This document shows, in pieces, positions 201-5,204 of a stretch of DNA of 5,204 bases. Position numbers and translations under genes: made by a program. Under the pieces are notes generated by a model. It made no database searches. It saw only the letters and a program-made list of their open reading frames with translations, and was not told the origin of the DNA. This DNA comes from a virus (lineage: Duplodnaviria; Heunggongvirae; Uroviricota; Caudoviricetes). The first letter of the stretch is position 1; the number at the start of each line of letters is the position of its first letter. Location of the stretch: the IMG/VR virus record IMGVR_UViG_2548876958_000011; one strand, 5' to 3'.

Positions 201-776
201 TTAAGGATTCATTAAGCAATGTCGCAACCACCAATAAATCCGCTTAAGAACATGAAAATTGATTACTGGTATAAAGCGCTTACAGTTGTTGGCGCTGCGT
301 TGTTTGTCTTTAATGGAACGTCTTTTTTTGACAGATATCCCGTTGTTCCATTGGGTTTTTTGTCCTCCGGCATCTTTTTTATTGGTTTGGGGGAGTGGAT
401 TAATCACCCTCTCAAAGTGAGATTTATTGGCCCTGGAGTTTGGACTCGTGGATATAATCGTTCTTCGTGCGCACTCGGTATCATCTTCGACATACTTGGT
501 TGTTTCCTGATTGTTACAGGAGTCGTCAAGTTCTTCTGATGTAAAACCGCAAATGGGGCACGTAACGGGAATTTTGAAAAGCGTTTCTCCGGGTTCCAGA
601 ACAAAATTTTCTGCGGTCTGATTTTGCTTCTCATATTTGTGCTCCGCGTCATTGTGAGAGCACATTCTTATTCTGAGTGCCTGTTTAAACTCACTGAAGC
701 TGAGAGCTTCTTCGCCTTCGGCAAGGCCTTCGAAGTATTCTTCGTAAGCCTTTTCCATGATTGTGTCGAAATCCAT
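201..776 (-). CDS. Acidic hypothetical protein, 191 aa as read to the first stop; C-terminal extent uncertain
   Basis: ATG at 776-774 preceded by AGGTGA with 5-nt spacing, 1 nt after the TGA of the upstream 51-aa ORF. N-terminal ~80 aa acidic and protein-like (MDFDTIMEKAYEEYFEGLAEGEE...). The distal ~110 aa is K/R/N/S-rich low complexity and is the codon-aligned antisense of the 219-539 membrane ORF, so it may be a shadow. Confidence 0.4.
   Translation of the reverse strand: MDFDTIMEKAYEEYFEGLAEGEEALSFSEFKQALRIRMCSHNDAEHKYEKQNQTAENFVLEPGETLFKIPVTCPICGFTSEELDDSCNNQETTKYVEDDTECARRTIISTSPNSRANKSHFERVINPLPQTNKKDAGGQKTQWNNGISVKKRRSIKDKQRSANNCKRFIPVINFHVLKRIYWWLRHCLMNP
219..539 (+). CDS. Small predicted membrane protein, 106 aa, about three hydrophobic segments; possible superinfection-exclusion-type function
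   Basis: ATG at 219 preceded by AAGGA (202-206); in-frame TAA at 213-215 prevents upstream extension. Hydrophobic stretches ALTVVGAALFVF, LGFLSSGIFFIGLGEWI and ALGIIFDILGCFLIVTGVV. Opposite orientation to neighbours, as for sieB in Rac-type prophages (synteny recall only). Fully overlapped antisense by the 201-776 ORF. Confidence 0.5.
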   Translation: MSQPPINPLKNMKIDYWYKALTVVGAALFVFNGTSFFDRYPVVPLGFLSSGIFFIGLGEWINHPLKVRFIGPGVWTRGYNRSSCALGIIFDILGCFLIVTGVVKFF

Positions 777-1510: not shown

Positions 1511-1574
1511 GTTAGGTAATTCTAATTTTTCTTGACTTAGATATCCCGCGCACAATAATGTTAGAAAAGTCTAA
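1511..1574. promoter_or_regulatory. OR-like region: rightward promoter with overlapping operators
   Basis: -35 TTGACT (1532-1537), 16-bp spacer, -10 AATAAT (1554-1559). Perfect palindrome TTAGA-AAAG-TCTAA at 1561-1574 over the predicted start site; imperfect GTTAGG-TAAT-TCTAAT at 1511-1526 upstream of -35; lone TTAGA half-site at 1537-1541. On the minus strand a TAGAAT -10-like hexamer (1525-1520) lies ~10 nt before the repressor ATG. Confidence 0.55.
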
Positions 1575-1589: not shown

Positions 1590-1817
1590 ATGCTTAAAGT
1601 TGACGCAATTACTTTTTTTGGCAGCAAAACAAAGCTTGCCAATGCCGCAGGAGTGAGACTGGCAAGTGTTGCTGCTTGGGGGATACTGGTTCCTGAAGGT
1701 CGCGCGATGCGTCTACAGGAGGCATCTGGCGGGGAGCTTCTGTATGATCCCAAGGTTTATGACGAATATCGTAAGACGAAGCGGGCGGGGCGGTTGAACA
1801 ATGAAAATCACTCCTGA
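1590..1817 (+). CDS. Cro-like small DNA-binding protein (DicC/YdaS-like), 75 aa
   Basis: ATG at 1590 with AGAGGGGG 5 nt upstream; the track's start at 1587 is TTG one codon earlier. Segment FGSKTKLANAAGVRLASVAAW is HTH-like. Divergent from the repressor across the operator region. Resemblance to DicC is from memory. Confidence 0.75.
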   Translation: MLKVDAITFFGSKTKLANAAGVRLASVAAWGILVPEGRAMRLQEASGGELLYDPKVYDEYRKTKRAGRLNNENHS

Positions 1818-2322
1818 ACAGGCTCGTGAGGCTCTGGATGCCTGGATATGTCGACCAGGAATGACACAGGAGCAGGCGACGATATTAATCACTGAAGCAT
1901 TCTGGGCTTTGAAAGAGCGCCCGAACATCGATGTTCAGCGTGTCACAGATGAAGGTGGCGCGGTTGATCAGCGAGCGCTTGGCGTTAATCGAGTGAAGAT
2001 ATTCGAACGCTGGAAGGCTATCGACACCAGGGATAAGCGTGAAAAGTTCACGGCGCTAGTGCCTGCAATTATGGAGGCTATCCGGATTAATGATTTCAGG
2101 TTGTATCGTGAAATTAGTGACGGAAAAAGCATCACGTACATGATCGCCGGGTTAAACAAAGAATATGGCGATGTGGTGGAGTCCGGACTGCTTTTTGCTG
2201 ATCCTGCCGTAGTGGATCGTGAAACTGACGAACTTATAGAAAAAGCAATTGCTTTCAAACTTGCGTATCGACAGCAATACCAACAAAAAGCTGGATGGAA
2301 TTATGAGCCTTCTTTTTGCTGA
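1801..2322 (+). CDS. YdaT-like protein in the cII position, 173 aa
   Basis: ATG at 1801 overlaps the Cro-like stop by 17 nt. Immediately downstream of the Cro-like gene, where Rac/CP-933P-type prophages carry ydaT, reported as a CII functional analogue. Assignment is by synteny and recollection, not alignment. Confidence 0.55.
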   Translation: MKITPEQAREALDAWICRPGMTQEQATILITEAFWALKERPNIDVQRVTDEGGAVDQRALGVNRVKIFERWKAIDTRDKREKFTALVPAIMEAIRINDFRLYREISDGKSITYMIAGLNKEYGDVVESGLLFADPAVVDRETDELIEKAIAFKLAYRQQYQQKAGWNYEPSFC

Positions 2323-3268
2323 ACGCCCACTGGTTATAAACACACAGCTTGCGATGAAGATTGGCTTAAATGAAGCCATTGTGTTGCAGCAGTTGCATTA
2401 CTGGTTGAGAGATACCAATTCCGGCATGGAATGTGATGGTGTTCGCTGGATTTACAACACAACGGAACAATGGCTGGAACAGTTCCCATTCTGGTCAGAG
2501 TCAACGTTAAAGCGCGCGTTTGCAAGTCTGAAAACGCTGGGGCTTTTGCGTTGTGAAAAGCTCAATAAATCAAAGCGCGATATGACCAATTTCTACACGA
2601 TTAACTATGGGAGCGAGCTTTTAGATGATGGCAAATTGAGCGAATCCATCGGTTCAAAATGCGCCGCTCCATCAGGTCAAAATGACACGATGGAAGAGGT
2701 CAAAATGAAACGCTCCATTGGTTCAAAACGACCCAATGTCATCGGGTCAAAATGGCCCGATGATCCTACAGAGAATACAACAGAGATTACTACAGAGAAT
2801 AAAAACACTTTTCGTCCGGAAGCTTCGCAACCGGACCCGCAGACGGCTGAACAGGATTTTTTAATCCGGCACCCTGGCGCAGTTGTGTTTAGTGCGAAAA
2901 AACGCCAGTGGGATAGCCAGGAGGATCTGGCGTGTGCGCAGTGGATATGGGGGCGGATCGTGGGTCTCTACGAACAGGCCGCCAGTGATGATGGCGAGAT
3001 CATGCGACCAAAAGAGCCTAACTGGACTGTCTGGGCCAATGATGTGCGCACAATGCGGATGCTGGATGGCAGAAGCCACAGACAAATTTGTGAAATGTTT
3101 GGTCGGGTACAGCGGGATCCATTCTGGGTAAAAAACATCATGAGCCCGTCAAAGCTCCGCGAAAAATGGGACGAACTGGTCATCCGCCTGGGGCGTTCAC
3201 CTGTACAGCGTTGTGTTAATCATATTTCTGAACCGGATACAGAAATTCCGCCTGGTTTCAGAGGATAA
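2303..3268 (+). CDS. Phage replication initiation / replisome-organiser protein (O-like), 321 aa from ATG 2303
   Basis: N-terminal wHTH-like segment (LVINTQLAMKIGLNEAIVLQQLHYWL) typical of phage initiator N-domains. Iteron array and A/T-rich block lie inside the gene, as for ori-lambda inside O. The track's start at 2249 is TTG; ATG 2303 is preferred and overlaps the upstream stop by 20 nt. Confidence 0.8.
   Translation: MSLLFAERPLVINTQLAMKIGLNEAIVLQQLHYWLRDTNSGMECDGVRWIYNTTEQWLEQFPFWSESTLKRAFASLKTLGLLRCEKLNKSKRDMTNFYTINYGSELLDDGKLSESIGSKCAAPSGQNDTMEEVKMKRSIGSKRPNVIGSKWPDDPTENTTEITTENKNTFRPEASQPDPQTAEQDFLIRHPGAVVFSAKKRQWDSQEDLACAQWIWGRIVGLYEQAASDDGEIMRPKEPNWTVWANDVRTMRMLDGRSHRQICEMFGRVQRDPFWVKNIMSPSKLREKWDELVIRLGRSPVQRCVNHISEPDTEIPPGFRG
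2646..2755 (+). repeat. Replication-origin iterons, five copies of CCATYGGKTCAAAAYG-like repeat
   Basis: TCAAAA cores begin at 2654, 2677, 2700, 2723 and 2747, spaced 23/23/23/24 bp (about two helical turns). Copies fall in different reading frames, so conservation is at the DNA level. Confidence 0.7.
2765..2810 (+). other. A/T-rich block next to the iterons, candidate DNA-unwinding element
   Basis: Three tandem ACAGAGA(A/T)TAC-like units (2769-2802) followed by AAAAACACTTTT, directly downstream of the iterons, mirroring the ori-lambda layout. Confidence 0.5.
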
Positions 3269-3308: not shown

Positions 3309-3710
3309 GTGGCAAAAGTTTTTACACAAGAAGAGCGGGAAAAAATTAAAGGGCAGGTGGTGGAACTCGTGCGCCAGAGCGGTCGTGAGACGTTACGGCA
3401 ACTGGAAGCTAAAACAGGTGCGACTAGATATCTGATGAGCGTTCTTGCCAGAGAGCTGGTAGCCAGTGGCGATGTATACAACTCCGGCTACGGGTTATTC
3501 CCGTCTGAACAGGCGCGTAAGGACTGGCAAAACGCCCGCAAAAAACTCTCGAGGGCAAAGGTGAAGAAAACAGCTGTGGTTGATCCGGACCTTATCTGGT
3601 CGTTACCTGATGGAGAAATACGTCGCTACGACAGTCGCCTAAACATAATCTGTCGCGAGTGCCGGATGAGTGAAGTTATGCAGCGCATACTGGCATTTTA
3701 TCAGGGATAA
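3309..3710 (+). CDS. Hypothetical protein, 133 aa, possible winged-helix fold; function unknown
   Basis: GTG start at 3309 with strong SD AAGGGGGA (3299-3305); stop TAA 3708-3710. No Walker A motif, so not a DnaC/P-type helicase loader. Basic C-terminal half. Confidence 0.6.
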   Translation: MAKVFTQEEREKIKGQVVELVRQSGRETLRQLEAKTGATRYLMSVLARELVASGDVYNSGYGLFPSEQARKDWQNARKKLSRAKVKKTAVVDPDLIWSLPDGEIRRYDSRLNIICRECRMSEVMQRILAFYQG

Positions 3711-3928: not shown

Positions 3929-5176
3929 TTAAGTCTGAGCCTCACTCTCTTGGCCATAAGTGGCTTGCCAGTATCTCGCCGTAGGGTTCATTAGAATGTG
4001 CAATACAAGCCACCATGCAAAAATGCAGGGAGGTTGATTGTAGTAACCGGCAGGCACATATCCGTGAGCTAGTTGATTTCGTAAATCACCATAGATTTTA
4101 TCTACCAGTAAGGCCTGAAGATTGCCAATTATGTCTACGCCGAAAGCTTCAATAATCAGTGGATTATCTAGTAATCCCTTGAGTCCATTTCGCTCTTGCG
4201 AACCGTCCCCGTGAAGCTGCGATGGTTCCTCACCTTTAATTTTAGCCACATATCTCAGACTATTTTCGATCTGGGGAATCAACACGTGGCATGCCGTCAT
4301 AAAATCTCCATTGAAACCGCAAACCATACCCTTGATGAAAAACTCTTCATGCCCAAACGGGATGAAGGGATGATTGATGAACATATCGCGAAAAAACGCC
4401 TCCGAGATTGGATATTTCATTGTGATCTCATCTGTAGCAGGAATAATTTGCCCAGCTACTGCCAACTCATGGTCGATACGCATTCTCGTCATCATTATGG
4501 GCCAAATAACTGCCCCATTTGCATCATCAATCCCCAATCCTGCGGGTATGCGAGCAAGTGTCATTCCCTCATGATCAATATGTGTTGATCCAAACATCCA
4601 AGCTATGCTGTTGGCCTTTTGTTCTATTGCTTGAGCCTTAAGTCTCTCAATGCTGGTTGGCCGACAGACCAGCATCGCAAGTCTGAAAACCATATCAAAC
4701 AAATCTCTTCCGACTACCCGACTCTTGGCTTGATGGACAATCTCACTAATATCTTGAGGGGGAGACTGAAGGATAGACATCTGGTGACGGGATTCGATTT
4801 GGTAATCACGCATTTCTTCATACAGCGCAAGACGTTCTATTCGGGTTCCTGGAATATTAGCCAGTGCTTCAATAGCATTCTGCATGCAGGCTGCCGAAAT
4901 CATACCGCCATCTTGGAATTTTGACTCTTCCAGATGTGTATCGGCAAGAAGCCGCCAGAATTCAAACTGTGTATCTCTGTCACAGCACCTATTCGCAATC
5001 GGGATTGCGGTTTTACAGGCATCGACGGCAAATGAAAATAATTTTTGAGCCAGATAGTTTTTTGTCAGAAACAGGAGTTCCTGGGCAATAAAAGATGGCT
5101 CACTCACTTTACAGTCGATATCGAGTTGCAGGAGTCGCAGCGGATAAGGTGGATTTGCCCCTATATTTCCAGACAC
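3929..5176 (-). CDS. Hypothetical 415-aa protein with C-terminal HEPN-like R-x4-H-x-Y signature; candidate abortive-infection / defence protein
   Basis: Long ORF convergent with the phage early operon. Motif DLRNQLAHGY at residues 364-373 (nt 4058-4081). Duplicated IDHE motifs (HIDHEGM, RIDHELA) mid-protein. GTG start at 5176 with weak SD, so the N-terminus is uncertain. Stop TAA 3931-3929. Confidence 0.7.
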   Translation of the reverse strand: MSGNIGANPPYPLRLLQLDIDCKVSEPSFIAQELLFLTKNYLAQKLFSFAVDACKTAIPIANRCCDRDTQFEFWRLLADTHLEESKFQDGGMISAACMQNAIEALANIPGTRIERLALYEEMRDYQIESRHQMSILQSPPQDISEIVHQAKSRVVGRDLFDMVFRLAMLVCRPTSIERLKAQAIEQKANSIAWMFGSTHIDHEGMTLARIPAGLGIDDANGAVIWPIMMTRMRIDHELAVAGQIIPATDEITMKYPISEAFFRDMFINHPFIPFGHEEFFIKGMVCGFNGDFMTACHVLIPQIENSLRYVAKIKGEEPSQLHGDGSQERNGLKGLLDNPLIIEAFGVDIIGNLQALLVDKIYGDLRNQLAHGYVPAGYYNQPPCIFAWWLVLHILMNPTARYWQATYGQESEAQT

Positions 5177-5204
5177 CTGTTATCACTTAACCCATTACTG
5201 GCTT

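Follow-up and report, generated by a model that had tools for sequence, protein, structure and literature searches.

The gene that follows the Cro-like gene in this prophage raises the question of whether it encodes a toxin of the YdaS/YdaT type or an analogue of the phage lambda regulator CII. It lies in a stretch of DNA of 5,204 nucleotides (hereafter the window), which was 99.9% identical to a lambdoid prophage of Escherichia coli ATCC 25922 and of many other strains. This prophage is located beside rspAB/ynfA, where Qin sits in K-12. The analysis pointed with considerable confidence to a CII-equivalent regulator of lysogeny establishment, belonging to the YdaT family and encoded by a Qin-like prophage, which would act through binding to a box, activation of a PRE-like promoter, and probable control of xis-int.

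The genes around the locus were arranged in the order repressor, Cro-like gene, YdaT-like gene, and replication genes, in agreement with the YdaS/YdaT arrangement that had been proposed from the sequence. The CI-like repressor DicA is encoded at 1102-1509 on the minus strand (NCBIfam DicA, 224.7 bits against a cut-off of 101). DicC, the Cro/YdaS analogue, is encoded at 1587-1817 on the plus strand (NCBIfam DicC, 163.4 bits against a cut-off of 130; Pfam P22_Cro); its ORF runs from 1587, and the RefSeq start is the ATG at 1590. With both scores above their cut-offs, the predicted DicA/DicC-like switch was borne out as well. The YdaT-family (CII-analogue) gene (1801-2322, plus strand) lies directly 3' of the Cro/YdaS-like gene, 5' of the replication genes, and opposite the CI-like repressor. 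It is followed on the same strand by genes for an O-like replication initiator (2303-3268; ATG at 2303 as in RefSeq) and a DUF977/Ren-like protein (3309-3710), and the minus strand further carries a DUF1391/ydfA-like gene (781-987) and a DUF4209 gene (3929-5176; 595 aa in ATCC 25922). The combination of a DicA/DicC-type switch, a YdaT-like gene, and replication genes was common to 10 diverged loci. From a PR-like promoter, identified as a consensus match (TTGACT-16-AATAAT; 1532-1559, plus strand), dicC would be transcribed together with the YdaT-like gene and the replication genes.

Several other features were observed in the window. Inverted repeats of the TTAG...CTAAC type flank the dicC promoter (1511-1525 and 1561-1575) and recur upstream of the ydfA-like gene (1014-1029 and 1048-1065); they probably serve as operators for DicA/DicC, comparable to sites of the OR and OL type. 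The O-like gene contains five direct repeats of 23 nt in tandem (2647-2762) and three repeats of 12 nt (2766-2804), and these iteron-like repeats (2647-2804) suggest a phage origin within this gene, as in lambda O. An ORF of 205 aa on the minus strand (201-818) matched PHROG 35040, of unknown function (2.8e-149), and carried no Pfam domain; the stretch is mostly without annotation in the RefSeq record of ATCC 25922, which shows only a partial ydfB pseudogene at its right end, and a hydrophobic ORF of 106 aa (219-539, plus strand) overlaps it on the opposite strand. The last ~55 nt of the window (5149-5204) resemble the terminus of an insertion element and interrupt the DUF4209 gene; we take this tail to belong to an IS2-type insertion element. 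The best genome matches to the window all ended at about 5154, and the tail matched thousands of places, including plasmids.

The ORF after the Cro-like gene was found at the coordinates originally predicted, with an ATG at 1801 and a TGA at 2320-2322, and encodes 173 aa. Its overlaps with the flanking genes were also confirmed, namely 17 nt with dicC (1801-1817, dicC ending at 1817) and 20 nt with the O-like gene (2303-2322). These overlaps are compatible with the translational coupling that they had been taken to indicate, but they do not prove it. Most relatives have a 4-nt ATGA overlap instead, and the gene in the window has a Shine-Dalgarno-like stretch of its own. An identical protein (100%) is encoded by phages HannyBb, mEp460_ev081, and PhiR42_1, and full-length relatives with 35-45% identity were found in Citrobacter, Salmonella, Raoultella, and Enterobacter prophages; because the gene is identical in isolated phages and has full-length relatives across genera, the ORF was regarded as a real gene. 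When 1.84 billion cluster representatives were searched exhaustively with HMMER, only 80 matches were obtained at E<=1e-3, and the family is therefore a small one of enterobacterial prophages. The identical gene is named 'toxin YdaT family protein' in RefSeq and 'CII-like transcriptional activator' or 'cII' in phage records.

The Pfam search for a YdaT domain was positive: PF06254 (YdaT_toxin) matched residues 59-131 with 26.1 bits, above the curated gathering cut-off of 21 (E 1.2e-5), and the domain was present in all relatives. PHROG 163 ('CII-like transcriptional activator') was matched with an E value of 2.3e-40. The original prediction had seen no resemblance to lambda CII, and this held: YdaT_toxin was the sole Pfam match at E<=0.01, BLASTP against the lambda CII sequence gave no alignment, and the two proteins differ in size (173 aa versus ~97 aa).

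Similarity to the YdaT proteins of Rac and CP-933P was reached to different extents. BLASTP against Rac YdaT (P76064) gave 41% identity across 29 residues only, and given this limited direct pairwise similarity the protein was considered to represent a distant subfamily. In a single-sequence phmmer search against the PDB, matches were borderline (E 0.05-0.07), and a family profile was therefore used. The profile, built from 34 relatives, matched over residues 2-95 the solved YdaT structures 8bt1 (cryptic prophage CP-933P of E. coli O157:H7; 1.5e-5) and 3c4r (E. coli O6; 5.5e-5). All residues invariant in the family-wide alignment (M1, I3, N63, R70, W71, L86, P88, A89, and I90) were present. 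R70 and W71, which were invariant in alignments including the Rac, CP-933P-type, and Klebsiella homologues, correspond to R57/W58 of the recognition helix of Rac YdaT and R60 of that of CP-933P YdaT, and these Arg-Trp residues are needed for DNA binding (PMC11879457, PMC9986795).

The AlphaFold (AF2) model of the protein had a mean pLDDT of 83.7 (~90 over residues 11-100), with helices at residues 5-16, 23-36, 57-71, 77-97, and 99-106. Residues 1-106 were predicted to form an N-terminal POU-like helix-turn-helix (HTH) domain, in which the recognition helix (57-71) carries R70 and W71 and a 20-residue loop (37-56) lies between the two HTH helices. A long loop at this place is a hallmark of YdaT (PMC9986795). 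Foldseek comparison of the model with the PDB returned convincing matches only to 8bt1 and 3c4r (prob 1.00; TM 0.59-0.66 on target).

Beyond residue 106, the model contained two helices (111-130 and 135-164) broken at FADP, and a helical hairpin was accordingly predicted for the C-terminal module (111-164), in contrast to the one helix found there in the solved YdaT proteins. The family-wide alignment revealed hairpin and single-helix modules as two interchangeable C-terminal modules. The hairpin type, with the motif 'SIxYL..LKE..LLxAP..RECDEA', was found in the window protein and most relatives, some of them with Rac-like N-domains, and the single-helix type in Rac, CP-933P/Tritos, and a Klebsiella phage. 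On the basis of the models, the stoichiometry of the hairpin type may differ from that of the solved YdaT tetramer, and the Qin-type hairpin module may give a dimer rather than a tetramer. K-12 ydfX (locus L003 4347-4637) corresponds to the window gene truncated after residue 93, and in many database proteins residues 1-93 continue into sequence of unrelated kinds (IstB-like, DUF968, and others). Breaks thus appear to recur where the DNA-binding domain meets the C-terminal module.

An 18-bp element resembling the YdaT box was found at 1794-1811 (TTGAAC-AATGAA-AATCAC, TTGAACAATGAAAATCAC; no strand assigned) as the predicted binding site. It begins at -7 of the ATG, so that the start codon falls within its 6-bp spacer. 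The footprint of Rac YdaT, ATGATT-CATGAA-AATCAA (ATGATTCATGAAAATCAA), likewise has the ydaT ATG in the spacer (PMC11879457), and the ATG register of the window box is identical to that of the Rac YdaT-box. CP-933P YdaT gave footprints on TTGATT-N6-AATCAA at the ydaS/ydaT junction (end of ydaS) and activates PRE933P (PMC9986795, PMC8630535). A box at the start codon, at the junction of dicC and the YdaT-like gene, is therefore shared with Rac and CP-933P and forms part of the support for the YdaT reading. Just upstream, a G-rich Shine-Dalgarno-like stretch (GGGGCGG; 1786-1792, plus strand) belonging to the YdaT-like gene lies inside the 3' end of dicC, and columns -4 to -1 before the box were G-rich in all relatives aligned.

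The window box differs from the CP-933P consensus at three positions and is poorly palindromic (3/6 positions). A scan of the window for TTGATT-N6-AATCAA with up to three mismatches found six sites against 4.3 expected, that is, no enrichment for this pattern. The box at 1794 was considered meaningful because of its position and its cross-species conservation, not as a bare pattern match. NTGAAC-N6-RATCAN was present at -7 or -10 of the start codon in 14 of 14 diverged loci, comprising the window and 13 others, with protein identities of 35-63% and otherwise no resemblance in the upstream sequences. The loci of these diverged relatives were retrieved individually; a scan of genome contigs yielded few. 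A TGA-N10-TCA core was common to all 14 subfamily loci as well as Rac, Tritos, and a Klebsiella phage, and the half-site positions carried 1.6-2.0 bits each versus 0.1-0.7 bits in the flanks.

The internal spacing of the box was constant despite a 3-nt register shift relative to the ATG (loci L015, L017, L021, and L022), and the left half-site is read in two frames, as TTG AAC AAT in DicC and as xCT GAA CAA TGA in most other cro-like genes. The presence across diverged loci, the information content, the kept spacing, and the two reading frames together speak for an element maintained as DNA and against a constraint from coding. Codons 2-4 (M-K/x-I-S/T), which are conserved, overlie the right half-site, and the conservation of this half could be partly coding.

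In most relatives (L011-L026) the right half-site is GATCAR, which contains the Dam methylation site GATC, and the window and Rac types have AATCA (1806-1811); binding is possibly methylation-sensitive in part of the YdaT family. Two further PWM matches, at 1587-1604 (dicC start) and 1921-1938 (a near-palindrome in the coding region), were dropped, being not conserved or no better than chance. A perfect 14-bp palindrome (GAACATCGATGTTC; 1923-1936) inside the YdaT-like coding region contains the same GAAC half-site core as the box. Relatives did not conserve it, and chance alone would give ~0.3 such palindromes per window.

Leftward of the box at a distance of 20 nt, a candidate -10 hexamer of a putative PRE-like promoter was found through the spacing analysis only (TACGAT; 1768-1773, minus strand). 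Of 20 sites, several of which are related by descent, 19 had TAnnnT at a leftward distance of 20 or 21 nt from the box, against a background of 1.1% per position. Any other leftward offset had this hexamer in three or fewer of the 20 sites, and the rightward control at 20/21 nt from the box had it in 2 of 20. TACGAT falls in the conserved DEYRK codons of DicC. A scan of the window for the sigma-70 consensus detected no leftward promoter, as expected because the promoter would be activator-dependent.

Assuming a start ~7 nt downstream of TACGAT, leftward transcription would begin near 1761 on the minus strand. The centre of the box would then be at about -41.5, 41-42 bp upstream of the start, overlapping a non-consensus -35. 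From this overlap we infer the classic activator-dependent layout and a functional equivalent of lambda PRE. The PRE-like transcript would run antisense through dicC into dicA, and DicA is its presumed beneficiary. Rac YdaT activated leftward transcription up to 29-fold, and this activation was assigned to a promoter at a distance of ~190 bp rather than to one close to the box (PMC11879457).

The original YdaT-like reading was thus supported by the Pfam domain, the profile match to 8bt1, Foldseek, R70/W71, gene order, and the start-codon box. The analysis established membership of the family, by sequence and predicted fold, as well as the gene context and the fact that both the box and its distance to the -10-like hexamer are conserved.

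In addition, the half-site PWM was scanned across whole prophage stretches, in which ~0.06 matches of the top score are expected per 58 kb. The top match besides the start-codon box was located upstream of xis-int in the prophages of ATCC 25922 (TTGAAC-ATTAAG-AATCAG), Salmonella (TTGAAC-ATCAAT-GATCAG), and Citrobacter (TTGAAC-ATTAAT-GATCAG). Each of these boxes lay on the same strand, 50-66 nt upstream of a xis-like gene preceding int, and each again had TAnnnT 20-21 nt leftward; the xis/int genes of the three prophages belong to three different families. The xis-int box is outside the window and was seen in close relatives only. Because a second box of the same geometry precedes xis-int in these relatives, the YdaT-like protein probably turns on integration functions too, in the manner of CII at PI. 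With the box upstream of xis, both xis and int would be transcribed.

A second box was also found in Rac (TTGATT-ATTAAT-AATCAG, TTGATTATTAATAATCAG; NC_000913.3 ~1413503-1413520, locus L027 2004-2021), 51 nt upstream of xisR, between xisR and rcbA. TAACAT lies 21 nt leftward of it, towards xisR-intR, and TACAAT 20 nt rightward, where it agrees with the start annotated for the ralA antitoxin sRNA. In phage Tritos, a YdaT of the CP-933P type is combined with the same xis box as in the window-type prophage, which fits the reported cross-recognition between the Rac and CP-933P YdaT proteins, and no co-variation was found between YdaT type and the xis-proximal box. A strict scan for box plus -10 in the 45-kb phage HannyBb returned two sites only, at the start codon and at xis-int (PP925841.1, 25762-25779).

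In the literature, two Rac YdaT sites are given in a paper from which xisR is absent (PMC11879457), and a single strong YdaT site is described for CP-933P (PMC9986795). Depletion of RacR with a rise of YdaT increased xisR/intR ~100-fold, and the pathways were treated as functionally independent (PMC11014345). These three papers make no mention of a xis-proximal YdaT box (PMC11879457, PMC9986795, PMC11014345).

The DNA binding, activation, oligomeric state, and biological role that we infer for the YdaT-like protein can be combined as follows. The gene would be co-transcribed with dicC from the DicA-repressed rightward promoter. Its product, composed of the POU-like HTH domain and a C-terminal oligomerisation module, would bind the inverted-repeat-like box of 18 bp (1794-1811) over its own start codon, and the bound protein would activate the otherwise silent leftward PRE-like promoter (-10 TACGAT, 1773-1768).

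The same box lies within the rightward operon and overlaps the start of the gene itself, and the protein might instead act mainly as a repressor or roadblock, its occupancy of the box stopping rightward transcription into its own gene and the replication genes (negative autoregulation, a brake on lytic replication) with no leftward activation. The wording 'YdaT repressors' in the structural paper on CP-933P (PMC9986795) and the binding of Rac YdaT over the PydaST promoter as well (PMC11879457) would suit such a role. We consider it unlikely: the constant distance of 20/21 nt to a -10-like hexamer on the left, seen in 19 of 20 sites, points to activation, as does the identical geometry ahead of xis-int, where a roadblock would have nothing to stop, and binding to the Rac box left rightward expression unchanged (PMC11879457). 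Repressor and activator roles are not exclusive of each other.

A role as the toxin in a toxin-antitoxin pair of the YdaS/YdaT type, partnered by DicC, is highly improbable. The name used by Pfam and RefSeq is 'toxin YdaT', but the predicted fold is that of a DNA-binding HTH domain, the gene occupies the cII position in viable phages, and DicC is a Cro-family repressor. Expression of Rac YdaT leads to filamentation and death (PMC11879457, PMC5700377); this toxicity has been ascribed to off-target activation of host rcsA (PMC11879457), and CP-933P YdaT was non-toxic, its pair being shown not to be a toxin-antitoxin system (PMC8630535). The debate between toxin and CII analogue, to which the original prediction referred, exists, and the literature largely favours the CII analogue (PMC8630535, PMC9986795, PMC11879457). 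That the gene is a functionless relic left by decay of a cryptic prophage is hardly to be expected, since the truncation of the K-12 Qin copy ydfX to 96 aa, the many truncated or chimeric database copies, and the IS-like insertion nearby in the prophage of the window are set against a full-length ORF with 100% identity to its counterpart in isolated phages, full-length conservation across genera with every family-invariant residue kept, and conservation of the cis element, the box, as well.

Identification of the gene as a YdaT-type CII analogue is correct, yet it was already in databases and the literature, where YdfX was called 'Qin prophage YdaT homolog' in a 2025 paper (PMC11879457). The lambdoid immunity-region architecture had been read correctly from raw sequence, and current annotation is not extended by it. 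The added value is comparative and consists of the conserved box-to-(-10) geometry and the second box before xis-int, Rac included. There is about an even chance that YdaT-family regulators of the Qin type and of Rac are in general class-II-like activators, with the box 20-21 bp from the -10 and its centre at -41.5/-42.5, acting at both PRE-like and PI-like promoters. If so, they would be full CII-regulon analogues, with a PI-like promoter just upstream of xis-int that is so far unreported. The published coupling of YdaT induction with the rise of xisR/intR and with Rac excision would be directly explained, and the '190-bp distance' model for Rac would be worth re-examination. The model is testable, and in it a widespread class of prophage regulators would control repressor synthesis together with integration/excision genes, which has implications for the stability of prophages and for the 'toxic' phenotypes described in Rac.

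Compared with lambda CII, the likeness lies in the immunity-region position and in the proposed regulatory logic: the site would span the start of the regulator's own gene and overlap the -35 of a weak leftward repressor promoter, with a second site at the int promoter. In contrast, no sequence similarity was detected, and the two proteins differ in size and in fold family. The window has an inverted repeat as its site and lambda CII a direct one, and the xis-proximal site is upstream of xis here and inside xis in lambda. No third site comparable to lambda PaQ was found in HannyBb, the phage with an identical protein.

YdfX of K-12 Qin is an orthologue, with 98% identity to residues 1-93; its gene likewise overlaps dicC by 17 nt and lies next to the same DicA/DicC switch. 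It is a 96-aa truncation without the whole C-terminal module, whereas the window gene is intact (173 aa), and YdfX is probably non-functional as an oligomeric DNA binder.

CP-933P YdaT shares with the window protein PF06254, the predicted N-terminal POU-like HTH fold, the Arg-Trp pair of the recognition helix, and a long alpha2-alpha3 loop (20 residues in the window protein versus 9-23 reported). Its gene also lies after a Cro-like gene and before replication genes, and its 18-bp box also has a 6-bp spacer and is located at the junction with the upstream gene. The two proteins differ in that the match was obtained by profile only (1.5e-5) and covered residues 2-95 only. The C-terminus of CP-933P YdaT is one 29-residue helix that forms an antiparallel four-helix-bundle tetramer, whereas that of the window protein is a predicted hairpin. 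The half-sites are TTGATT/AATCAA in CP-933P versus TTGAAC/AATCAC in the window, and the partner repressor is PaaR2 versus DicA.

Rac YdaT differs in having H56 where the window protein has E69, in its single-helix C-terminus, and in the short extent of BLASTP similarity (41% over 29 residues). Additional operators in the repressor-cro intergenic region and the host target rcsA are further features demonstrated for Rac. Rac YdaT and the window system are alike in the box on the gene's own ATG, in the identical register xTGAxx-xATGAA-AATCAx, in the leftward -10-like hexamer 20 nt from the box, and in the second box upstream of xis-int.
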